Of a stretch of DNA of 64,000 nucleotides, positions 10,729 through 61,096 are shown piece after piece (within the stretch, counting starts at the first letter, position 1; each line of letters starts with the position of its first letter). Made by a program: the position numbers and the translations under genes. The DNA is from Candidatus Parcubacteria bacterium (GTDB lineage Bacteria > Patescibacteriota > Patescibacteriia > Patescibacteriales > UBA12465). The notes beneath the pieces were generated by a model. The model did not search any database and was not told the origin of the DNA. It saw only the letters and a program-made list of their open reading frames with translations. Where the stretch lies: the NCBI GenBank assembly GCA_023444045.1, contig JAEZRQ010000001.1, positions 2,000 to 65,999 of the forward strand, in the 5' to 3' direction.

Positions 10729-11760
10729 ATGATTATTTTAGGAATTGAATCCAGTTGTGATGAAACAGCGGCGGCGGTAGTGAAGATAAACGAAAAAAGC
10801 GGCCAGTCAAAAACGCTCTCCAATATAATTTCCTCACAAATTGCGATTCATCAAAAATATGGTGGTGTTATTCCAGAAGTTGCTGCTCGCGAGCATGTTT
10901 TTAATATTCTGCCAGTAATCCATGAAGCGTTAGAAACAGCCAAAACAACTCCTAAGAAAATTGATCTAATCGCCGTTACTAAAGGACCAGGCCTGATAAC
11001 ATCATTAATTAGCGGCACTGAAACCGCTAAAACTTTGTCTTATGTTTGGAATAAGCCGTTAGTAGGAGTTAATCACATCGCCGGACATATTTACTCTGAT
11101 TTTTTAGAGGTAAAGCAAAAGATAAACTTCCCTTTGGTGGTTTTAACCGTTTCCGGCGGACACACTAACTTAATTCTGATGAAAAATCATAGTGGTTTTA
11201 AGGTTATTGGTGAAACTAGAGATGATGCGGCTGGTGAAGCTTATGATAAAGGGGCAAAAATGCTAGGACTTGGCTACCCTGGTGGACCAATTATCTCAAA
11301 ATATGCCAAAGAATTCGCCACTTCCGGTAAAGCAAGTACTCTTAAATTCCCGCGACCAATGCTTGATAATGGTCTGGATTTTTCATTTTCTGGTCTAAAA
11401 ACTTCTTTACTATATCAACTTCAAAAGGATAAAAACTGGAAAAAAAGAATCCCAGAATATTGTTTTGCTTATCAAGAAGCAATTATTGAGATTTTAAGCA
11501 AAAAAGCTATTAGAGCCGCTAAAAAATATCAAGCTAAAACCGTGATGTTATCTGGTGGAGTGGCGGCTAATTCTGAGTTGCGCTCATTTTTGGCAGATTT
11601 GGTAGAAAAAGAGCTTCCCAAGATCCCTTTTATTACCCCAGATATTTCATACACCACTGACAATGCGGCCATGATTGCCTTGGCCGGTTATTATACTAGT
11701 AAGGGAAAGAATAAAGACTCTTGGCAGAACTTAAAAGTTGATGTAAACTTTGGATTGTAA
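10729..11760 (+). CDS. tsaD: tRNA N6-adenosine threonylcarbamoyltransferase
   Basis: ILGIESSCDETAAAV, GVNHIAGH and SGGHT motifs, typical of the Kae1/TsaD family. Confidence 0.92.
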   Translation: MIILGIESSCDETAAAVVKINEKSGQSKTLSNIISSQIAIHQKYGGVIPEVAAREHVFNILPVIHEALETAKTTPKKIDLIAVTKGPGLITSLISGTETAKTLSYVWNKPLVGVNHIAGHIYSDFLEVKQKINFPLVVLTVSGGHTNLILMKNHSGFKVIGETRDDAAGEAYDKGAKMLGLGYPGGPIISKYAKEFATSGKASTLKFPRPMLDNGLDFSFSGLKTSLLYQLQKDKNWKKRIPEYCFAYQEAIIEILSKKAIRAAKKYQAKTVMLSGGVAANSELRSFLADLVEKELPKIPFITPDISYTTDNAAMIALAGYYTSKGKNKDSWQNLKVDVNFGL

Positions 11761-11764
11761 GTTT

Positions 11765-11838
11765 GGTTCGGTGGCGAAGTGGTCTAACGCTGCAGTTTGC
11801 AAAACTGTCATTCGTGGGTTCGAATCCCACCCGAACCT
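11765..11838 (+). tRNA. tRNA-Cys (anticodon GCA)
   Basis: Acceptor GGTTCGG/CCGAACC, anticodon loop TTGCAAA, T arm GTGGGTTCGAATCCCAC. A hairpin terminator follows at ~11854-11890. Confidence 0.9.
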
Positions 11839-12078
11839 CAACTATGTTAAAAAATGATTAAGCAAGTAGCTTAGTCATTTTTTTATTGGTATAAGTAGTA
11901 TATAAACTGTGGATAACCTGTGATTTTAGTTTTTATTTTTTTATTTTTGTCCACTATGGCCTAGACTTTAAGACTTAAAAAACATAAAATTACACATCAG
12001 GCAAAAGATGTTATTTATTTAATATTAGCTAATATTAATTATTAAACTCAGTTACTTCCTAAAATAAGGGGAAAACTA

Positions 12079-12107
12079 TTGCTAGCTATTTTTAAAAGTG
12101 GTAGAAT
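12079..12107 (+). promoter_or_regulatory. Strong orphan promoter inside a 760-bp ORF-free region
   Basis: TTGCTA (12079-12084), 17-nt spacer, TAGAAT (12102-12107), preceded by TGg (extended -10). Confidence 0.6.
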
Positions 12108-12145
12108 ATACACAGGATAAACAAAAATTGTGTAATAGTTCTTAT

Positions 12146-12227
12146 TTGTTCTTTGCTACAAAGATGAAAAAACATCAAAAAAATTGTTCTTTGCTACCAT
12201 TACAACTAAATAACCGTTCTTTCACTA
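12146..12227 (+). repeat. Triple direct repeat TTGTTCTTTGCTAC (x2 exact) plus CCGTTCTTTCACTA
   Basis: Exact 14-mers at 12146-12159 and 12184-12197, and a degenerate third copy at 12214-12227. Confidence 0.8.
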
Positions 12228-12472
12228 TAAAATTTCTTGACTAATTTAGAGTCTTTGCTGAAGTTAGAGCAGCAAAAGTTTATCGGGTAGAAAACGATAA
12301 AATCAAGATTTGATTCAAGATAAAATATCAAAAAATTAAACCTTTATTTTGGGATTTTATTTACCAAGAATTGGTTAAGAAATTAACTTCAGAATCTAAC
12401 ATGAAGAATTTGCTTCAATTTTTTCGTCTTTTAATAATAAAAGAGTAAAAGTTAGCAAAAAAACAAAATATA

Positions 12473-12548
12473 GAGGCTCAACCTGGCCCAGAAATCAAAT
12501 TTTTATATAATATAAAAACCTGGCCAAACCGAGCCTCTTTTTATTTTC
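12473..12548 (+). terminator. Long composite hairpin plus T-run upstream of ychF
   Basis: Outer stem gaggctc/gagcctc (12473-12479 / 12531-12537), an inner tggcc/ggcca stem and an AT stem, followed by tttttatttt. Confidence 0.6.
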
Positions 12549-12601
12549 CTAAAAATCTGTTTAAATAGAATGGAACTAAATAAAAATAACTATTTTTACC
12601 T

Positions 12602-13669
12602 ATGTCATTATCTATTGGAATTGTCGGTCTGCCAAATGTTGGTAAATCATCATTATTTAATCTTCTAACTAAAAAAGGCGTCGAAGCGGCTAATTACCCT
12701 TTTTGTACCATTGATCCTAATGTTGGGGTGGTAAAAGTACCCGACTCTCGCCTAGAAGCTTTAGCGACTGTTTCTAAACCACTTAAAGTTATTCCAACTA
12801 CCATTGAGTTTGTAGATATTGCTGGACTGGTATCTGGTGCTAGTCAAGGAGAGGGATTGGGTAACAAATTCTTAGCTCACATTAGAGAATGTGATGCTAT
12901 TTGTGAGGTAATTCGTGATTTTAAAGATAAGAATATTATTCATGTTAATAATAAGATTGACCCTGAAAGCGATAAAGAAACAATTAATACTGAGCTAGTT
13001 TTAGCTGATCTATCGACGGTTGAAAAAAGACTATCTAATTTAAAAAAGGATAGTAAAAGTGGTAACAAAGAAATATTGGCTCAAGTATCTATTTTAGAAA
13101 AAATTTACCAACACCTGTCTGCGGGTGGATCTGCTAGAGAATTAGAATTTAGCGAGGAAGAGATGCCTTTTATCAAATCTTTATGCCTTTTAACCTCAAA
13201 ACCTATCATTTATTTACTCAATGTTGATGATAGTTTTGGTGGTACTGATATTTTAAAAAATGTTAATGAGCAAATTATTACTATTAACGTAAAAAATGAG
13301 GAAGAAATTGCCACTCTGCCAGAAGAAGAGCAGGCCGAATATATTAAAGAATTGGGCCTTGAGCAAAGTGGACTAGATAAGTTAATCGCCGCCGCTTATA
13401 AAATATTAGGACTTGATACTTTTTTTACCACCGGCCCTGATGAAACTAGAGCCTGGACCATTAAAAATGGTACTAAAGCCCCACAAGCAGCAGGCGTTAT
13501 TCATACTGACTTCATTAAAGGCTTTGTTAGAGCCGAGGTAATTCAGTGGGACAAATTCGTTGAAGCTGGATCTGATGCTCGAGCCAAGGAACTGGGAATA
13601 ATGAGAATTGAAGGCAAAGAATACGTCGTAAAAGACGGCGATGTCTGTAATTTCTTGATTAATAGATAG
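12602..13669 (+). CDS. ychF: Ribosome-binding ATPase YchF (Obg-like GTPase family)
   Basis: GIVGLPNVGKSSLFN P-loop, DIAGLV, and a C-terminal TGS-like region (RAWTIxxGxxAPQAAGxIHxDF). Confidence 0.92.
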   Translation: MSLSIGIVGLPNVGKSSLFNLLTKKGVEAANYPFCTIDPNVGVVKVPDSRLEALATVSKPLKVIPTTIEFVDIAGLVSGASQGEGLGNKFLAHIRECDAICEVIRDFKDKNIIHVNNKIDPESDKETINTELVLADLSTVEKRLSNLKKDSKSGNKEILAQVSILEKIYQHLSAGGSARELEFSEEEMPFIKSLCLLTSKPIIYLLNVDDSFGGTDILKNVNEQIITINVKNEEEIATLPEEEQAEYIKELGLEQSGLDKLIAAAYKILGLDTFFTTGPDETRAWTIKNGTKAPQAAGVIHTDFIKGFVRAEVIQWDKFVEAGSDARAKELGIMRIEGKEYVVKDGDVCNFLINR

Positions 13670-16910: not shown

Positions 16911-16957
16911 TCTTCTTAGATAAAAAAATACCACCTCCATTGCGGGGGTGGTGTTTT

Positions 16958-17170
16958 TTAGAGGAACATATTTCGCCAATAATCTCTTTCCTTAATATAG
17001 GCCTTAACCCTAAAGAATAAGCCACTAACCAACAGGATGACAAATAGCATAAACATAATAGGAAAGATTAGTGAATCACTGTTGACTTCGCTGCATGAAA
17101 ACGAGAGTGCCGCAAGAATAATTACGGAGATAATAAGCATCCCATTGCCTATTTTTTTATTTTTTTTCAT
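16958..17170 (-). CDS. Small membrane protein or lipoprotein, function unknown
   Basis: 70 aa with two hydrophobic segments and a possible lipobox LSFSC. No recognisable family. Confidence 0.4.
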   Translation of the reverse strand: MKKNKKIGNGMLIISVIILAALSFSCSEVNSDSLIFPIMFMLFVILLVSGLFFRVKAYIKERDYWRNMFL

Positions 17171-17272
17171 TGTTCAAAAGTTTTAAAGGTTCTACAATCT
17201 TCAAAGATTAAATCATAACAACAAGAGTTCGTCAACCTGTCACCATTCTAATATCGTGATATAATACCAGAT

Positions 17273-22561: not shown

Positions 22562-22568
22562 ATTCTCT

Positions 22569-22793
22569 ATGGAGATAGTATTATTTATTGCTTTAATAAT
22601 TGCCATCTTAAGCTTAATCACGATTAAAAAACAAGAGTGTCTTCGCGGCGCTCGTTTTAGTAAGAGAAGATATTATAAGAAAAACAGCTCAAGGGAATAT
22701 CTGGAAAAAGTAAAAGAAGCCACTAAGAAAAGATTTGAAGAGGAAAGCAAAAACCAAGAATATAAAAATAACATTAAAAATAATTATTTATAA
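22569..22793 (+). CDS. Hypothetical N-terminally anchored basic protein
   Basis: One TM helix followed by a K/R/E-rich tail. Confidence 0.35.
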   Translation: MEIVLFIALIIAILSLITIKKQECLRGARFSKRRYYKKNSSREYLEKVKEATKKRFEEESKNQEYKNNIKNNYL

Positions 22794-22798
22794 TTTTT

Positions 22799-22993
22799 TT
22801 AATCTTCAAGAATAAATAAATCCTCTATCTTCACCCCCAGACTCTTAGCAATATTATAAGCTAAGTTGAGTGAGGGGTTATATTTACCTTGCTCTAAGAA
22901 AACAATTGTTTCTCGCCTAACACCAGCCGTTTTAGCCAGATCCTCTTGGGTAAGTCCTAGTTTAAGGCGATTTTCTTTAATCTTATTATTCAT
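22799..22993 (-). CDS. XRE-family helix-turn-helix transcriptional regulator
   Basis: [34 protein letters not shown], a classic Cro/C1 HTH. It is coupled to the upstream membrane protein with a 2-nt gap. Confidence 0.88.
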
Positions 22994-22995
22994 GG

Positions 22996-47051: not shown

Positions 47052-47327
47052 AAAAAATAAAGTAAGACTGAATTAAGTCTTATATATTATACGGTTTTTA
47101 TACCTCCTTGGCAAATTAAAAAATTTTATTTTATATTAGTTAAAATAGTTTATTTTATTTAATATTAGACAAAATAATATTGTTCTGCGAGGAACGTCGC
47201 TTTTTAATTAGATAAAGCCATTACTTGTCTTTCAATATTAACTAGTAAAAAGTTTTTTTAGTTAAAACAATTTTTGTTTGCTTGTTTATTTAGAAGCTTA
47301 AGAGATTAACGGTCATCGTCTCATTGC

Positions 47328-47378
47328 TGTTCCTTGAAGAACATAAGTTAAAAATTTAACAATGTTCCTTAAGGAACA
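47328..47378. promoter_or_regulatory. Twin operator-like palindromes TGTTCCTTnAAGnAACA
   Basis: tgttccttgaagaaca (47328-47343, imperfect) and tgttccttaaggaaca (47363-47378, perfect 16-bp palindrome). Their centres are 35 bp apart. Confidence 0.45.
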
Positions 47379-47446
47379 CCATCAAATGGTTTATTGTCCA
47401 GATTATTGTTGACTATTAAAAAAGAGGCTTAAAAAACCTCTTTTTG

Positions 47447-50402: not shown

Positions 50403-50417
50403 TAAATTAAATATTAA

Positions 50418-50555
50418 CTACTTTGATAATACTTTTCTTCCTTTGTCGCGTCTTCTTTTTAAAACTTCTCTTCCATCTTCTGTTTCCATTCGGTGTAAAA
50501 ACCCATGTTTAACGCTCGCCCTTTTTTTATTTGGCTGATATGTTCTCTTTGGCAT
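50418..50555 (-). CDS. rpmH: 50S ribosomal protein L34 (below the ORF-track length cutoff)
   Basis: Manual translation: [45 protein letters not shown]. Confidence 0.92.
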
Positions 50556-50739
50556 AACTTATTTTTTAAAATTTTAATTTTAGATTAAATATACTCTAAC
50601 ACTTTTATTTTTAAAGGTCAATAATTATTTATTATTACTAGTTTTCTAGTTATCAACAGTTTACTAACAGCTTATAAACAAACTTTGCTTGTAGTAAAGG
50701 TTTTTATTAAATATAATTAAAACATAAATAAAAATCCCT

Positions 50740-52146
50740 ATGTCTTACGATCAAATTTGGCAGGCCGCTTTAGGCGAAATAGAAGTTAATCTATCGCGGG
50801 CTAATTTTATTACTTGGTTTAAAAATACTTTTGTGTCCTTGGTTGAAAATGGCCAGGTAACTGTTTGTGTTCCAAACTCTTTTATCCAAAAATGGCTTGA
50901 AGAAAAATATCACAAGACAATTTTAAGCGCCCTAGAAAATGTTTTAAAACAAAAAGTAATTATTGTTTATAAAGTAGAAGTTAGAAACAACGGCAACCAA
51001 ACAATTATTAACGATAAAAATAGTCACTTAGTTGGCTCATTAAAAGAGAAGTCTCTTACTCCAGAAAATAATAGCAGAGTGGAAGAAAAAAATAACCAAC
51101 CAATTAAGGGGAGTGAAAATAAATTTGGTTTAAATTCTAAGTATGTTTTTGAAAATTTTATTGTAGGAAAAAACAATGAGCTAGCTTATGCCGCCTGTTG
51201 GGCAGTGGTTAATAATTTAGGAAAGGCTTATAACCCTTTATTTATTTATGGTGGGGTAGGGCTAGGAAAAACTCACTTACTACAAGCCATAGGTAATGAG
51301 GTGTCAAAAAAAACTGATCGTATTCTTTATACCACCTCTGAAAAATTTACTAATAATTATATTCAGGCTGTACACTCCGGAAAAGCAAAAGAGTTTAAAA
51401 ATCTTTATCGCAATGTTGATCTCTTTTTAATTGACGATGTTCAATTCATGGGTGGAAAAGATGGTACTCAACAAGAATTTTTTCATACTTTTAACGAACT
51501 ACAACAAGGAGACAAGCAGATTGTCCTAACTTCTGACAGACCACCAAAATCTCTCCCCGCTATTGAGGCTCGTCTAATTTCTCGTTTTGAGTCTGGTATG
51601 GTAGCTGACGTTGGTAAACCGGATATGGAAACCAAAATTGCTATTTTAGAAAAAAAATCAATTGAAAAAGGTTTTCCGTTAAGTTCTGAAATAATAAACC
51701 TACTTGCTAAAAGCGTCCAAAATAATATTAGGGAGCTTGAAGGTGTTTTAAATAAAATTATTGCCGTACACCAAATTAAAAACATCCCCGTAAGCGAGAG
51801 AAGTGTTAAAGAAATTCTGTCTGATTTTATTGCTAATACCCAAACAAAATCTTTGTCTAATAAAGAGGTTATTGATGCTGTTTGTCGTTTTTATGATATT
51901 AGCTCTAAAGATTTAATCGGTAACAGCCGCAAAAAAGAGCTTGTTTGGCCAAGACAAATTGCTATTTATTTAATGAGGGAAGAAGTTAAATCATCCTATC
52001 CTAATATTGGTCATGAAATAGGGGGCAGGGATCACACCACCGCGATGCATGCTTACAATAAAGTTAGCCGAGAAATAAATGAGAATGAAAATGAAAAAAT
52101 AAAACAAGAGTTGGTTTCTATTAAACAACTATTTAACAGTTTATAA
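50740..52146 (+). CDS. dnaA: Chromosomal replication initiator DnaA
   Basis: AAA+ GGVGLGKTHLLQA, LIDDVQF, domain IV (RKKELVWPRQIAIYLMRE...GGRDHTTAMHA). Confidence 0.95.
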   Translation: MSYDQIWQAALGEIEVNLSRANFITWFKNTFVSLVENGQVTVCVPNSFIQKWLEEKYHKTILSALENVLKQKVIIVYKVEVRNNGNQTIINDKNSHLVGSLKEKSLTPENNSRVEEKNNQPIKGSENKFGLNSKYVFENFIVGKNNELAYAACWAVVNNLGKAYNPLFIYGGVGLGKTHLLQAIGNEVSKKTDRILYTTSEKFTNNYIQAVHSGKAKEFKNLYRNVDLFLIDDVQFMGGKDGTQQEFFHTFNELQQGDKQIVLTSDRPPKSLPAIEARLISRFESGMVADVGKPDMETKIAILEKKSIEKGFPLSSEIINLLAKSVQNNIRELEGVLNKIIAVHQIKNIPVSERSVKEILSDFIANTQTKSLSNKEVIDAVCRFYDISSKDLIGNSRKKELVWPRQIAIYLMREEVKSSYPNIGHEIGGRDHTTAMHAYNKVSREINENENEKIKQELVSIKQLFNSL

Positions 52147-52394
52147 CTTGTTAATAAGTAGTTAATAACTAATGAGATCCTGTTAATTAAATTGTGTATT
52201 AAACCTTAAACCTTTGTTAATAAAAAAAGTTGTTAACTTTTAAAACACTTTTACCACACAGCAATTTAAGATTTAATCAACAGAAAAAAATCGGTATTAT
52301 TTTTTAGAGTAAGCCAAAAAATAGCAATAACAATAACTTATACACCCCCTTATTATTGTTATTATTTATATAAATATATATTAAATAATATAAT
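52147..52394. other. Candidate oriC (dnaA-dnaN intergenic region)
   Basis: Five same-orientation (T/A)GTTAAYWW motifs at 52149, 52160, 52181, 52215 and 52231. Their reverse complement, e.g. TTATTAACA, matches the DnaA-box consensus TTATCCACA at up to 7 of 9 positions. A ~55-bp almost pure A/T tract follows at 52340-52394. Confidence 0.55.
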
Positions 52395-53522
52395 ATGAAA
52401 TTAATTAGTGTTCAGGAAAATTTAAAAAAGGGACTACTGACTGTAAGTCATGGAACTGGTAAAAATATTAACTTACCAATTCTTAATAATATTTTAATAA
52501 AGGCTTATAACAACTCTATTGAGCTTATTAGCACTAATTTAGAAATCGGCATTATTTATAAATTAAGAGGTAAGGTTGAAAGAGAGGGTGAATTTACGGT
52601 TGATTCAAAAATTATTACCGAATATGTTAATTTGCTTCCAAGTGAAAACGTGGAGATAGAAGAAATAGGCGGTGAACTTAAAGTAGAGTGTGGTACTTAT
52701 AAAACAAAAATTAAAGGAGAGGCATCAAAAGAGTTCCCTCTTATACCATCAGTTTCTCAAGAAAATTGTTATTCTTGTTCAATAGTTGAATTTAGAAAAG
52801 CTTTAAATAGTGTTTCTTTTGCAGTTTCAAATAGTGAAAATAGGATTGAGTTATCAGGAGTTTTATTTAATTTTGAGGATGAAAAATTAACTCTAGTTGC
52901 AACTGATAGTTATCGTTTAGCTGAAAAAACTATTAATACTAAAACAGAGAATAGTTTTATTAATCAAAAGTTAATTGTCCCCTCTAGAACTGTTCAAGAA
53001 CTTTTAAGAATTTTAAATAATTATAATAATGAGGATGGTGATTTTGAACAAAAAAGTGATGTTAAAATAGCTGTTTCTGATAATCAAATTTTGTTTTTAG
53101 TTGATTCTGTGGAACTTGTTTCCAGATTAATTAATGGTCAATACCCAGATTATCAACAAATTATTCCTGATAAAAGTAAAACAGAGGTGGTGGTAAGTAA
53201 GGCAAACCTTCTAAGAGCAGTAAAAGCGGTAGCAATTTTCTCTAAAACAGGAATTAATGACGTTAACTTAGAATTTAAAGATAATAAGATTATAATATCT
53301 GCTTCATCTGGACAGAGCGGAGAAAGTAGGGCGGACATTGAAGCGGATATTAGTGGCATTGATAATGAAATAGCAATTAACTTCCGGTACTTAGTTGATG
53401 GTTTAAATAATATTAATGCTGATAAAGTACGTTTAAAAATTGTTAGTACTAACACCCCTTGTATTTTAGTGGCCGAACCACAAGATGAATATCTTTATGT
53501 TGTAATGCCAATTAGGCAATAA
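52395..53522 (+). CDS. dnaN: DNA polymerase III beta sliding clamp
   Basis: Three-domain 375-aa protein (LVATDSYRLA, RLINGQYPDYQQIIP, MPIRQ C-terminus) and synteny. Confidence 0.93.
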   Translation: MKLISVQENLKKGLLTVSHGTGKNINLPILNNILIKAYNNSIELISTNLEIGIIYKLRGKVEREGEFTVDSKIITEYVNLLPSENVEIEEIGGELKVECGTYKTKIKGEASKEFPLIPSVSQENCYSCSIVEFRKALNSVSFAVSNSENRIELSGVLFNFEDEKLTLVATDSYRLAEKTINTKTENSFINQKLIVPSRTVQELLRILNNYNNEDGDFEQKSDVKIAVSDNQILFLVDSVELVSRLINGQYPDYQQIIPDKSKTEVVVSKANLLRAVKAVAIFSKTGINDVNLEFKDNKIIISASSGQSGESRADIEADISGIDNEIAINFRYLVDGLNNINADKVRLKIVSTNTPCILVAEPQDEYLYVVMPIRQ

Positions 53523-53523
53523 C

Positions 53524-53551
53524 AAAAAAGGGCCCCGCAGGGGCCCTTTTT
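53524..53551. terminator. Bidirectional GC-rich terminator
   Basis: gggcccc-gca-ggggccc flanked by an A-run and a T-run. Confidence 0.85.
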
Positions 53552-53555
53552 AAAA

Positions 53556-55898
53556 CTATTCTAAAATTAAATCTTCGGGAAAAATATCACTTTCATCTTT
53601 ATTGTTTAAAGCGTCTAATTCTTCTGGTGTTAAAAATTCACTTGGAAAATTTTCCTCAGCATCAATAGCAATAGTTGAAGAAGAAACTACTTGGTGATTT
53701 TTTTTAGCCCACTCTAAAACCGCCGCTTCCCAGGTAGAAAATTGAGGGTCGTTTTCTGGATTTTCAGGAGTTGGTCCAAGAGGATTATCTTTATCCACAA
53801 AATATAAGATAGAATGGTGATCATATATTTCTTTATATTTTACAAATTCAGTTGGGGTGTTAGCGCTTGCTGGCATATCAGAACGACTATCAAAAGCAGT
53901 TTTGCCTAGTGGTGATAAAACACCATCTAAAATATTTTTCCCTGTTTTAGTCTCTTCAGCTTCTTTAAATGATTCAACTGGAGTGCCTTGTAGAACTCTG
54001 TTCATGTATTCTTTCCAAATTGGTCCCGCTAAAACACTGCCATCAGCCCCTCTTTTCATTGAGTGATTATCAGTATTACCAACCCAAACACCGGTTACTA
54101 AAGATGGGGTGTAGCCAATAATCCAAGCATCTTTATAATCATTAGTGGTTCCGGTTTTAGCAGCGGCTGGGCGATCATTTAGGGTTAAGTTATTTTTCTC
54201 ACCAAAAATATAAGAACGAGCAGCATTATCTGATAAAATACTATTAATAAAGCGAGCTGTTTTTTGGGTTATTACATTTCGGCTATTAACTTTAGCTTCT
54301 TCTAAAATATTACCATCTCTATCCTCAACTTTTAGAACAGAAATTAAATCACTAACCTGTCCATCTCTAGCAAAAGCGCTGTAAGCATTGGTGTGTTCAA
54401 GTAACTTTACCTCACCACCACCTAAAACTAAAGATAAACCCAACCCCTTTTCATTTAGTGATGAATAACCAAGAGCGTGAGCCAGATCAATTACATTACT
54501 AACTCCAGTTAAGTAAAGTGCTTTAACAGCTGGAATATTTAATGATCCTGCTAAGGCTTTACGAATTGTAACTGGACCATTTTCTTTTAAATTATAATTT
54601 TTTGGAATATAAGGATCAGCTGGGTTGGTGGAAAAATTAGTCACTACATCATATAAAATAGTGTCTGGGGTGTAACCTTTTTCAAATAAAGAGGCAAAAA
54701 CAATTGGTTTCATGGATGAGCCTGGTTGTCTTAAGCTGGTGCTAACATTTACCTGACCAGCAATTTCTTTATTAAAGAAATCACGTGAGCCAATCATTGC
54801 TAAAATTTCCCCATTTTTTGGATCAACAGAAACTAGGGAAGCATTATTAGCATCATATTTAGTTTCATAATCTTTAATTTTTTCTATTAACACCTCTTCA
54901 GCAATTTTTTGTTTGTAATAATCTAAGGTGGTGTAAATTTTGAGCCCCCCTTGTTCTAATGTTTTTTCGCCATACTTCTCAGACATTAAACTTTTTATAT
55001 ACATCACAAAATGAGGGGCAATAATGCTAGATTCTGGCTTTTGAAAAATTATTTCTGCTTCTTTTGCTTGGTCTCTTTCCTCGGCTGATATATATCCCTG
55101 TTCATTCATTAAATCCAAGATGTAATCTTTTCTCCCCATTAAGATATCAAGATTTGGTCCGTAAGGAGAGTAGCGACTTGGAGATTGTGGTAGAGCCGCT
55201 AGAACAGCCGCCTCAGCGATATTTATCTCTTTTACGCTCTTACCAAAGTACTTGTAACTAGCCGCCTCTACACCGTAAGCATTTGACCCATAAGGAATCT
55301 CGTTAAGATACATTTGTAAAATTTCATCCTTAGAAAACTTTTTTTCTATTTGTTGGGCTAAGATAAGTTCCTTTACTTTTCTAGTAATAGATTTTTCGTT
55401 TGTTAAAATAGCGTTTTTAATAAACTGCTGAGTTAAGGTTGAGCCGCCAGCGGAACGGCGATAGATAACATTAGTTACCATTGTTCTAGCCATTGCCCAA
55501 ACACTAAAACCACCATGCTTATAAAAGTTTTTATCTTCAATGGCAATAGTAGCGTTTCTAACATGCATTGGAATTTCATCTAAAGAAACCAAAGTTCTCT
55601 TTTCATCACCATGTATTTCATAAAGAACATGTTCGCCACTGCGATCATAAATCTTGGTGCTTTGGGCTATTTCCCGATCAATTAACTGGTTTGGGTTTGG
55701 CAAATCGCGACTAATTATAATTATTCCAATAAAAGATAATAACGCAAAAAAGGCAATAAAAATTGTCAGTAAGGCTAATATTCTTTTTCGGTTAAACCAA
55801 ATTTTTTCCCAAAAAGTTTTCTTTTTAGGTGGTTTTTTCCAGGCTCTCATCGCTTCCTGGGTAAAGGTACTCTTTTTTCTAAGTTGAGGAATTGGCAT
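53556..55898 (-). CDS. Bifunctional class A penicillin-binding protein (PBP1A-type transglycosylase/transpeptidase)
   Basis: GT51 motifs (EDKNFYKHGG, GGSTLTQQ, RKVKE), transpeptidase SSMKP (SxxK) and KTGTT. Acidic C-terminal extension. Confidence 0.9.
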   Translation of the reverse strand: MPIPQLRKKSTFTQEAMRAWKKPPKKKTFWEKIWFNRKRILALLTIFIAFFALLSFIGIIIISRDLPNPNQLIDREIAQSTKIYDRSGEHVLYEIHGDEKRTLVSLDEIPMHVRNATIAIEDKNFYKHGGFSVWAMARTMVTNVIYRRSAGGSTLTQQFIKNAILTNEKSITRKVKELILAQQIEKKFSKDEILQMYLNEIPYGSNAYGVEAASYKYFGKSVKEINIAEAAVLAALPQSPSRYSPYGPNLDILMGRKDYILDLMNEQGYISAEERDQAKEAEIIFQKPESSIIAPHFVMYIKSLMSEKYGEKTLEQGGLKIYTTLDYYKQKIAEEVLIEKIKDYETKYDANNASLVSVDPKNGEILAMIGSRDFFNKEIAGQVNVSTSLRQPGSSMKPIVFASLFEKGYTPDTILYDVVTNFSTNPADPYIPKNYNLKENGPVTIRKALAGSLNIPAVKALYLTGVSNVIDLAHALGYSSLNEKGLGLSLVLGGGEVKLLEHTNAYSAFARDGQVSDLISVLKVEDRDGNILEEAKVNSRNVITQKTARFINSILSDNAARSYIFGEKNNLTLNDRPAAAKTGTTNDYKDAWIIGYTPSLVTGVWVGNTDNHSMKRGADGSVLAGPIWKEYMNRVLQGTPVESFKEAEETKTGKNILDGVLSPLGKTAFDSRSDMPASANTPTEFVKYKEIYDHHSILYFVDKDNPLGPTPENPENDPQFSTWEAAVLEWAKKNHQVVSSSTIAIDAEENFPSEFLTPEELDALNNKDESDIFPEDLILE

Positions 55899-60722: not shown

Positions 60723-60930
60723 CTTTAGCTATTTCGTGGGCATAAAAAATATCATCCTCAACTGGACAGTAAAAATCTCTATCAATTGTTCGGTACTCTT
60801 TTTTATGATCAAGTTTGATAAAGATCATATAGTTGTGAGGAATTTTTGTTATTGAGTAGTTTTTACTATCAAATAACAAAATACCAATTCTTTTTTGTCT
60901 TGCTCTTTCAAGCGCTTGTAGTTTGTTCAT
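60694..60930 (-). CDS. Hypothetical protein (78 aa) of the mobile element
   Basis: ORF only. Positioned directly upstream of the ATPase. Confidence 0.4.
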   Translation of the reverse strand: MNKLQALERARQKRIGILLFDSKNYSITKIPHNYMIFIKLDHKKEYRTIDRDFYCPVEDDIFYAHEIAKDAINKYFKS

Positions 60931-60939
60931 AGGTTTTGC

Positions 60940-61023
60940 GGGTTAATTAGATAATTTTATTGCTCGAAAATATCCAAGATTATCTCGACATATTCTATGA
61001 GGTTTTGATTATCTAATTTACCC
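60940..61023. repeat. 16-bp inverted repeat pair flanking a 52-bp spacer
   Basis: gggttaattagataat (60940-60955) versus the reverse complement of attatctaatttaccc (61008-61023), 15/16 match. Each arm is preceded by aggttttg. Confidence 0.7.
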
Positions 61024-61096
61024 ATAAAAAAATAGACTTAATTTCTTAAGTCTATTTTAACGAGTTTCAATATTGATACCGTGACATTTGTTGGTG

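Follow-up and report, generated by a model that had tools for sequence, protein, structure and literature searches.

Large bacterial RNAs that fold into complex structures and have no known function are rare, and those that have been solved proved to be ribozymes, cores of ribonucleoproteins (RNPs) or self-assembling architectures. OLE, ROOL, GOLLD and the raiA motif RNA have their own promoter and intrinsic terminator, measure several hundred nucleotides (nt), contain many covarying helices with long-range or pseudoknot contacts, and are lineage-restricted orphans. ROOL and GOLLD often adjoin tRNA genes. OLE, ROOL and GOLLD are reported to form homo-oligomers through intermolecular contacts that include kissing loops (PMC12286853). 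The Patescibacteria (candidate phyla radiation, CPR) account for much of bacterial diversity. Their genomes are tiny and hold hardly any surplus DNA, and their non-coding RNAs (ncRNAs) are almost unexplored; searches that seek GC-rich regions overlook their AT-rich intergenic stretches. Here, we analyse the gap between a tRNA-Cys gene and ychF in 64,000 nt from a Candidatus Parcubacteria bacterium (assembly GCA_023444045.1, contig JAEZRQ010000001.1, forward strand, positions 2,000 to 65,999), a stretch that we call the window and whose own numbering is used throughout. An earlier note on this stretch had proposed that the gap holds an ncRNA of ~430 nt or, alternatively, a very long ychF leader.

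We conclude that the gap is probably an independent gene for a stand-alone, complex-folded ncRNA, with a probability of about 80%, and the comparative data make it close to certain that RNA structure in the gap is under selection. Promoter, transcript and terminator are kept as a unit in more than 100 loci and the base pairs covary, including those of a pseudoknot, which bears out the ncRNA half of the earlier proposal; the comparisons below demonstrate that the unit is conserved and base-paired and that it is independent of ychF and of the chromosomal origin (oriC). The main layout runs from a DnaA box and palindrome over an extended -10 promoter and an A-rich transcript of 300–457 nt to a long terminator hairpin. 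The RNA measures ~432 nt in the window genome and about 300–370 nt in most relatives, with 24–38% GC and 38% A. It shares with OLE, ROOL, GOLLD and the raiA motif RNA the stand-alone gene layout, the size range, the covarying helices with long-range or pseudoknot contacts and the lineage restriction, but it does not match their Rfam models, is more A/U-rich (~30% GC) and occurs in Patescibacteria. It is also smaller than OLE, ROOL and GOLLD, and oligomers of it would be hypothetical. It is a new family within the large structured bacterial ncRNAs and stands out by host group, AT-richness, linkage to tRNA-Cys and DnaA box.

Relatives came from two scans. The first, based on YchF and run over species-representative genomes, retrieves loci independently of any DNA pattern. 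It places the window among Patescibacteria; proteins at 77–79% identity are named Candidatus Falkowbacteria, and the window genome is Falkowbacteria-like. The set of seven used here consists of the window and six genomes from six GTDB species (L001–L006, our locus handles; YchF 72–78% identical), all of which keep the order tsaD, tRNA-Cys, long gap, ychF. The gaps of these six measure 601–705 nt at 26–32% GC, below the locus average, and an AT-rich gap without a conserved open reading frame (ORF) thus spans 600–760 nt across the window and the six species; a further Falkowbacteria representative (L009, YchF 69% identical) has a gap of merely 193 nt. The second scan searched metagenomes with a pattern of DnaA box plus palindrome, which did not include promoter, RNA body or terminator, and gave at least 120 further loci. 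The counts below out of 121, 127, 91 or 114, and the statements on listed loci, draw largely on the metagenome matches listed, which were chosen by this pattern. Nine sequences form the window clade, namely the window with L088, L098, L106, L107, L110, L131, L159 and L190 (YchF 79–86% identical), and two relatives are nearer still (L202, YchF 95% identical; L203, 88%). An nhmmer profile of the family matches the window in a single copy (12229–12545, E = 5e-27) and finds none in 74 other ychF loci, and some divergent subfamilies cannot be aligned by it. Among the matches listed, this predicted RNA family, which lies outside Rfam 15, is found only in the Falkowbacteria-like lineage of the Patescibacteria.

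The helix model was built from RNAalifold on the seven sequences, which gives two covarying hairpins, and from a column-pair scan of 74 non-redundant sequences, followed by inspection. The supported order is 5' tail, P1(H1, P2(P3(P4))), H3, P5, P6, and its elements in the window are as follows.

12114 to 12547, + strand: predicted transcript of ~432 nt (12114–12545), its start placed from the -10 element and its end at the terminator.
12240 to 12375, + strand: P1, ACUAAUUU (12240–12247) with GAAUUGGU (12368–12375), closing the 5' domain.
12254 to 12276, + strand: hairpin H1, UUUGCUG-AAGUUAGAG-CAGCAAA, arms 12254–12260 and 12270–12276.
12263 to 12400, + strand: pseudoknot or kissing loop between the H1 loop GUUAGA (12263–12268) and the H3 loop UCUAAC (12395–12400), ~130 nt apart.
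12286 to 12365, + strand: P2, GGUAGA (12286–12291) with UUUACC (12360–12365).
12299 to 12350, + strand: P3, 12299–12307 with 12342–12350, enclosing P4, UUUGAU/AUCAAA (12309–12314 with 12327–12332).
12281 to 12301, + strand: hairpin UUAUCG/CGAUAA, arms 12281–12286 and 12296–12301, not conserved.
12387 to 12406, + strand: hairpin H3, CUUCA-GAAUCUAACA-UGAAG, predicted by the minimum free energy (MFE) fold and seen in the clade.
12409 to 12459, + strand: P5, a variable hairpin UUUGCU/AGCAAA with inner stem CUUUUA/UAAAAG (12428–12443).
12473 to 12547, + strand: P6, GAGGCUC/GAGCCUC (12473–12479 with 12531–12537), followed by a U-run (12538–12547).
12484–12488 with 12522–12526, + strand: inner stem of P6, UGGCC/GGCCA, with an AU-rich apex above it.

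The 63 pairs of this 10-helix model were scored on A3, a MAFFT alignment of 41 non-redundant sequences that is blind to structure. In it, 91.1% of the 2440 cells are paired, against 32–50% when the partners are slid by 1–3 columns. Double-sided changes fill 336 cells (33–63 when slid) and are carried by 49 pairs, and 0/500 shuffles reach any observed value; the control with slid partners and the variety of pair types are more telling than the shuffles. The nine sequences of the window clade have the same architecture (88.8% paired compared with 37–52% slid), and the MFE fold of the window core (z = -5.5) reproduces P1, H1, H3, P5 and P6. Alignment of the syntenic interval, which the earlier note had named as a check, reveals strong base-pair covariation within the transcript, both in A3 and in the clade. 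Because G-U pairs are confined to the + strand (40/40 at one P1 pair, for instance), the folded molecule is a plus-sense RNA or single strand.

Long-range P1 forms between the conserved 5' motif ACUAACUCU and AGAGUUGGU, is 93.8% paired with double-sided changes in 7/9 pairs on A3 and 94.4% paired in the window clade, and is lengthened by the window MFE fold to 12232–12247/12368–12383. H1 (97.1% paired, compensatory changes in 6/6 pairs on A3) also emerges from the seven-sequence and clade analyses, so that the first of the two local hairpins seen earlier, then placed at ~12256–12278, is real and conserved. P2 is 92.5% paired with double-sided changes in 5/7 pairs (A3); it is invariant within the window clade and differs between clades, with GCAAAU/AUUUGC in the main family and GGUAAA/UUUACC in the window clade. 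P3 and P4 are 93% and 91% paired in the window clade and their main-family equivalents 87% and 79%, H3 is 87% paired with double-sided changes in 3/4 pairs (A3), and the two stems of P5 are 98% and 96% paired in the window clade (main-family P5: 87%, double-sided changes in 5/5 pairs). The second local hairpin, UUAUCG/CGAUAA, is present where the earlier note put it and is predicted by the window MFE fold, but it is lineage-specific: it is confined to the window and its 95%-YchF relative, its 3' arm is absent in L088, L098, L106, others and L203, and it competes with the 5' strand of P2. Only the sequence AUYGGGUA is conserved at that site. Conservation beyond the needs of pairing is seen in GUUCUUU at the 5' end, in UUGGUAAGAA and in GAGGCUCA ... 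UGGGCCUC. In five distant variants (L097, L116, L195, L153 and L164), the single-stranded linker within the 5' domain contains CAAAA/CAAAAA units repeated in a row.

The contact between the H1 and H3 loops is paired in 100% of cells on A3, with compensatory changes in 5/6 pairs. The two loops occur as 10 distinct complementary 6-mer pairs: GUUAGA/UCUAAC in the window and, elsewhere, GCUAAC/GUUAGC, GCUGAC/GUCAGC, GCUGAC/GUCAGU (with G-U), ACUGAC/GUCAGU, GCUAGC/GCUAGC, GCUAGU/ACUAGC, GUUGAC/GUCAAC, ACUAAC/GUUAGU and GCUUAC/GUAAGC. Two hairpins with complementary, covarying loops persist in the divergent loci L083, L096 and L121 and, by eye, in L153 and L126. A shorter subfamily (L083, L096, L121, L144 and L184) of ~260–290 nt lies after tsaD-tRNA-Cys and before the gene of a 598-aa protein; it seems to be without P1 and P2, and its covarying loops read GCUGAU/AUCAGC and GCUGAC/GUCAGC. 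The D-loop of tRNA-Cys holds UCUAAC, the same 6-mer as the window H3 loop. We rejected pairing of the H1 or H3 loop with this D-loop as a coincidence, since the tRNA is constant while the loops covary.

The transcript ends in P6, which is 94% paired with double-sided changes in 5/9 pairs (A3) and precedes a T-run in nearly all listed loci. There it takes the form GAGGCUCA..GGCC..(AU-rich)..GCGGCCC..UGGGCCUC-UUUUU, 300–457 nt past the promoter; its long loop hid it from a simple terminator scan. The composite hairpin with T-run of the earlier note (12473–12537 and 12538–12547 in our coordinates) is hence real, and 54 nt separate its end from the ychF start codon (ATG, 12602). A short terminator within its 3' arm, GGCCC-GUUCU-GGGCC, is possible in the main family and was discarded as absent from the window clade.

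Upstream of the RNA body, the gap contains the following elements.

11907 to 11922, - strand: invariant 16-mer CTGTGGATAACCTGTG with a perfect DnaA box TTATCCACA (11908–11916, - strand), from the seven-genome alignment.
11949 to 11967, strand not assigned: palindrome GTCCA-N8-TAGACT, kept in 7/7 YchF-retrieved genomes and in the window clade.
11978 to 12031, + strand: conserved upstream block AAAATTACACAT..GCAAAAGATGTTAT..TTTAATATTAGC, from the window-clade alignment.
12079 to 12107, + strand: predicted promoter from the promoter scan, -35 TTGCTA (12079–12084), TG (12099–12100) and -10 TAGAAT (12102–12107).
12114 to 12231, + strand: 5' extension specific to the window clade, start region ATACACAG plus GTTCTTTGCTA-type repeats.
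12146–12159, 12184–12197 and 12214–12227, + strand: 14-mer repeats of the 5' extension.

The promoter that the earlier note had called strong is present, and its TTG, TG and TA..AT columns are invariant and in the same place in 7/7 YchF-retrieved genomes, but judged on this one sequence it does not stand out from chance, with 6 promoter-like sites in the window compared with 5.3 ± 2.6 in shuffles. The pattern is found in 121/127 loci, typically as TTGACC-17-TGCTATAAT at 135–172 nt downstream of the box/palindrome motif (121 listed loci). Neither the invariant DnaA box nor the long-range helices had been noticed before, and the elements that had been named all lie within 2 nt of the positions given for them. 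The 16-mer, with its perfect box inside, reads CTGTGGATAAC(Y)TGTG in the alignment of the seven gaps, and the box is one of only 3 perfect DnaA boxes in the 64 kb. The palindrome appears as GTCCAC-N6-GTGGAC in relatives and as GTCYA-N8-TRGACT in the seven-gap consensus, resembling two inverted TCCAC box cores, and TTTAATATTAGC of the upstream block is also kept in the main family. A DnaA-box-like ATATACACA overlaps the start site in the window. Three loci have tandem copies of the box-plus-palindrome motif ahead of the RNA promoter (L097 4250–4376, L119 4909–5035 and L099 1030–1230), with a spacing of 66 nt in L097 and L119 and of 141 nt in L099.

The window clade carries ~100 extra nt between promoter and P1. 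This extension opens with an invariant ATACAC..G stretch, which overlaps ATATACACA in the window, and includes the three direct repeats for which the earlier note had named protein binding as a point to check. The repeats exist as described, TTGTTCTTTGCTAC in exact copies at 12146 and 12184 (38-nt spacing) and the degenerate CCGTTCTTTCACTA 30 nt further at 12214, but they are no conserved protein-binding array: one GTTCTTTGCTA is kept in the clade, as GTTCTTTGC(T/G)A in all 10 members, and L110 has an extra copy. The second exact 14-mer is common to the window and L202 and absent from L203; since it is shared with the 95%-YchF relative alone and missing in the 88%-YchF relative, the tandem 14-mers of the window are, by their distribution, a recent duplication. 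Two local foldings of this extension were dismissed: pairing of the 14-mers with the H1 3' strand (no covariation, as the H1 stem varies across the clade and the repeat stays constant), and an ACACA/UGUGU hairpin at its start (just 58% paired in the aligned clade).

The window is compact and low in GC, and the gap lies between these neighbours, the tsaD gene (TsaD, 10729–11760) coming before them.

11765 to 11839, + strand: tRNA-Cys (GCA), from ARAGORN and Rfam, the conserved upstream neighbour of the module.
11849 to 11883, strand not assigned: terminator-like inverted repeat AAAAAATGATTAAGC / GCTTAGTCATTTTTT after tRNA-Cys, 93% complementary.
12602 to 13669, + strand: ychF, ribosome-binding ATPase (Pfam MMR_HSR1 and YchF-GTPase_C), the usual, non-obligatory downstream neighbour.

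A hairpin equivalent to the repeat at 11849–11883, with altered sequence, is present in the window clade. From tRNA-Cys to ychF the gap spans 762 nt, the longest in the window and among its most AT-rich, with 25.5% GC compared with 33% for the whole 64 kb. It had been described as free of ORFs above ~27 codons, which fails once GTG and TTG starts are allowed (48 aa at 12098–12244, + strand; 41 aa at 12206–12331, - strand), though these ORFs are unconserved: among ORFs of at least 25 aa in the gaps of the seven genomes, none is kept in position, frame or sequence. A small-protein start (AGGAG + ATG) in L001 was rejected, being out of frame in L002. Phage or plasmid records gave no similarity to the region, and a mobile-element origin was rejected. 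Elsewhere in the window, four intergenic stretches of 360–430 nt (47052–47445, 22562–22995, 16911–17272 and 60723–61096) have no ORF of at least 90 aa and are negative in Rfam scans.

Several points weigh against an independent RNA gene. Promoter, start site and terminator are predictions. The invariance of box and palindrome in the metagenome loci is circular, and only the seven YchF-retrieved genomes test it because the other loci were selected by that very pattern. Large structured RNAs seldom combine such low GC with 38% A, a composition in which A-U pairs readily arise by chance; the helices with least support are P4 and the inner stem of P6, and the shuffle control overstates significance because related sequences share ancestry. 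CPR RNase P RNAs are diverged, such that 10/35 circular genomes needed lowered thresholds and some RNAs are missed by Rfam cut-offs (PMC8172020), which is why we checked signature motifs directly. Lastly, the RNA may have some cis role on ychF through read-through of P6, given that ychF follows in ~80% of the listed loci at ~54 nt. The case rests on the relatives because the promoter in the single sequence is no better than chance and the gap is not strictly ORF-free.

Such a cis role is taken furthest by the explanation that the whole RNA is a long 5' leader of ychF, whose domain would sense a ligand, protein, tRNA or ribosome and in which P6 would be a conditional terminator. A same-strand ychF follows the module in 74/91 loci with enough downstream DNA, the distance from P6 to its ATG is short, and cobalamin riboswitches offer a precedent for a pseudoknot between the loop of an aptamer and a hairpin further downstream. 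Lysine (L2–L3) and cobalamin (L5–L13) riboswitches are also alike in their P1-closed multi-helix domain, the 6-bp loop-loop contact with an outside hairpin, the terminator that follows and, mostly, the downstream gene. In contrast to these riboswitches, the gap RNA has longer A-rich linkers and a larger domain, matches no Rfam riboswitch or leader model and occurs without the downstream gene: no ychF start lies downstream of the module in 17/91 listed loci, where the position that a leader requires is thus lacking. Unrelated or convergent genes follow in some of these, and the settings include a place before the 598-aa protein gene, convergence with yidC-yidD-rnpA, or unrelated neighbours. In L142, L150 and L164 the module is convergent with a yidC-yidD-rnpA row and tRNA-Cys is still upstream. 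The tRNA-Cys gene lies upstream on the same strand in 112/121 listed loci, within 300 nt in 100 of them and at a median of 64 nt to the motif, and the module is hence tied more tightly to tRNA-Cys than to ychF. No conserved anti-terminator pairing for P6 was seen in a search that was not exhaustive, and the covarying pairs back the terminator form. Between P6 and ychF, the window clade keeps a promoter-like block, TTTTCC.AAAA.TCTG(C/T)TTAAATA (12545–12570), with one further feature.

12558 to 12566, + strand: putative separate ychF promoter TG-T-TTAAAT, within the conserved block of the window clade.

This site fails the promoter scan; from its conservation, the TG-N-TTAAAT block may be ychF's own extended -10 promoter, giving a short leader in which no Shine-Dalgarno sequence is obvious. 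The leader alternative of the earlier note is weakened by the loci without ychF and by this block, and we regard it as improbable.

It is very unlikely, too, that the RNA is a highly diverged universal RNA (RNase P, 6S, signal recognition particle (SRP) or tmRNA) that Rfam misses in CPR. Size, strong promoter, tRNA-adjacent position and pseudoknot would fit a housekeeping RNA, rnpA is near the module in L142, L150 and L164, and none of the four genes was found in the 64-kb window; their absence is expected, however, because the window covers ~64 kb of a roughly 1-Mb genome. Scans with Rfam 15 (4227 models) recovered tRNAs and no other family in the window at gathering cut-offs and, relaxed to E ≤ 10, gave no plausible match over the RNA in the window, in L001–L006 or in L004 alone; RF00010 and the other models gave no match at E ≤ 10 on queries of 371 nt or 1051 nt. 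RNase P RNA, its diverged CPR forms included (PMC8172020), resembles the gap RNA in size, tRNA-linked position, housekeeping-type promoter and long-range pseudoknot, but the gap RNA lacks P4 and CR-I to CR-V and has another helix order. The P4/CR-I/CR-V signatures (GGAAAGUCC ... ACAGAA-N-GGCUUA) occur in 1/114, 1/114 and 4/114 listed members and are absent from the window RNA, the two ends of the RNA form no P1, the 3' one being a terminator hairpin, and the order P2-P3-P4-P5 ... P15-P18 is absent. For tmRNA, ARAGORN found none, and the T-loop GGUUCGAxUCC is seen in 0/114 and CCACCA in 1/114 listed members; SRP domain IV motifs (GNRA-capped helix 8) are seen in 0/114, with no Rfam match. 6S-type RNAs are end-paired rods of ~180 nt with a central bubble, and the gap RNA, without an Rfam match here as well, has a branched domain and three hairpins. 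A T-box sequence is likewise seen in 0/114 listed members. Signature motifs of the universal RNAs thus appear in just 0–4 of 114, the helix order fits none of these RNAs, a 5'/3' terminal stem is lacking, and a loop-loop pseudoknot spans ~130 nt. No description of a CPR ncRNA of this kind was found in Rfam 15 or the searchable literature, and the view that the family was not a recognisable one holds in the Rfam 15 scans, at gathering threshold and at E ≤ 10, and in the motif checks for RNase P, tmRNA, SRP RNA and T-box. By analogy, the RNA may be a non-homologous functional counterpart of 6S or Ms1 that binds RNA polymerase.

A DNA element, either a chromosomal origin or a DnaA-box cluster (DBC) of the datA/DARS/DBC type, with RNA structure as a secondary matter, is highly improbable as well. 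It would account for the invariant perfect DnaA box, the box-like halves of the palindrome, the box-like ATATACACA at the start site and the length and AT-richness of the gap, and ychF, rpsF-ssb or yidC-rnpA neighbours are origin-proximal genes in many bacteria. In Bacillus subtilis, DBCs are non-origin clusters of DnaA boxes, one of which adjoins gcp (tsaD). The gap resembles DBCs and DnaA-regulated promoters in having an invariant box upstream of the promoter and a box-like sequence at it, and it sits downstream of tsaD within ~40 kb of dnaA, but it has one strong box, its product would be an ncRNA, and DnaA binding is predicted only. Counting imperfect sites, the gap contains one perfect and two 2-mismatch boxes and no cluster. 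The genes dnaA (GGVGLGKTHLL; 50740–52146) and probably dnaN (52395–53522) lie at 50.7–53.5 kb, ~38 kb away, with flanks that are even more AT-rich (24% GC upstream, 21% GC between), and the dnaA-dnaN intergenic stretch has six 2-mismatch boxes. The orientation-independent component of the GC3-skew has a negative sign on either side of the gap and shifts only past dnaA (-0.08 at 0–12 kb, -0.16 at 12.6–28, -0.12 at 28–50.4 and +0.02 past dnaA; a modest analysis, by regression on 65 genes). We therefore rejected oriC at the gap, given dnaA at 50.7 kb, no box cluster and no skew change at 12 kb, and the dnaA-dnaN region (50403–53522) is the likely oriC. A DNA element also leaves the strand-specific G-U pairs and the compensatory changes in 10 helices unexplained, and a regulatory box for the RNA promoter is compatible with an RNA gene. 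If the origin is at dnaA, 31/45 genes in 12600–50400 are on the lagging strand, including apparent ribosomal-protein genes at ~33–38 kb, which is unusual for bacteria. After dnaN, between convergent genes, a palindromic element (53475–53597) with weak sub-threshold Rfam matches on both strands (Atu_C8) is probably a bidirectional terminator. Decayed DNA or an unannotated small-protein gene is scarcely credible, for although GC is low, the window has ORFs of 41–48 aa and L001 and L002 share a 43-aa minus-strand ORF, none of these is kept across the seven genomes, the T-rich minus strand yields ORFs by composition, conservation tracks base pairing rather than codons and no gene is called at the gap on the ENA contig.

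For the independent ncRNA, transcription would start ~7 nt after the extended -10 promoter and end at P6, and the near-consensus promoter suggests a high level of RNA. P1 would close the 5' domain, which holds H1 and the nested P2, P3 and P4, with H3, P5 and P6 following, and the H1-H3 loop contact would either lock the 5' domain to the 3' part as a pseudoknot or be intermolecular kissing. We propose that the RNA acts in trans, likeliest as a protein-binding or scaffold RNA, because invariant loops and strands are conserved beyond pairing and the single-stranded linkers are A-rich. The invariant box may let DnaA tune how much of the RNA is transcribed, and in the window clade the box-like start-site sequence may contribute. 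All specific modes of action are tentative at best. A more far-reaching version, drawn by analogy, is speculative and rather unlikely: a lineage-wide DnaA-controlled RNA in which intermolecular H1-H3 pairing would give head-to-tail homo-oligomers, or which would work as a ribozyme or as the core of an RNP, coupled to tRNA-Cys and to the state of replication or growth.

The conservation of an RNA of 300–450 nt with promoter, terminator and pseudoknot in more than 100 genomes implies an important function specific to this lineage of the Patescibacteria. The family offers a helix model that comes with natural compensatory mutants, as well as DnaA as a candidate regulator, and genome annotation should list a gene in the seemingly empty interval from tRNA-Cys to ychF.

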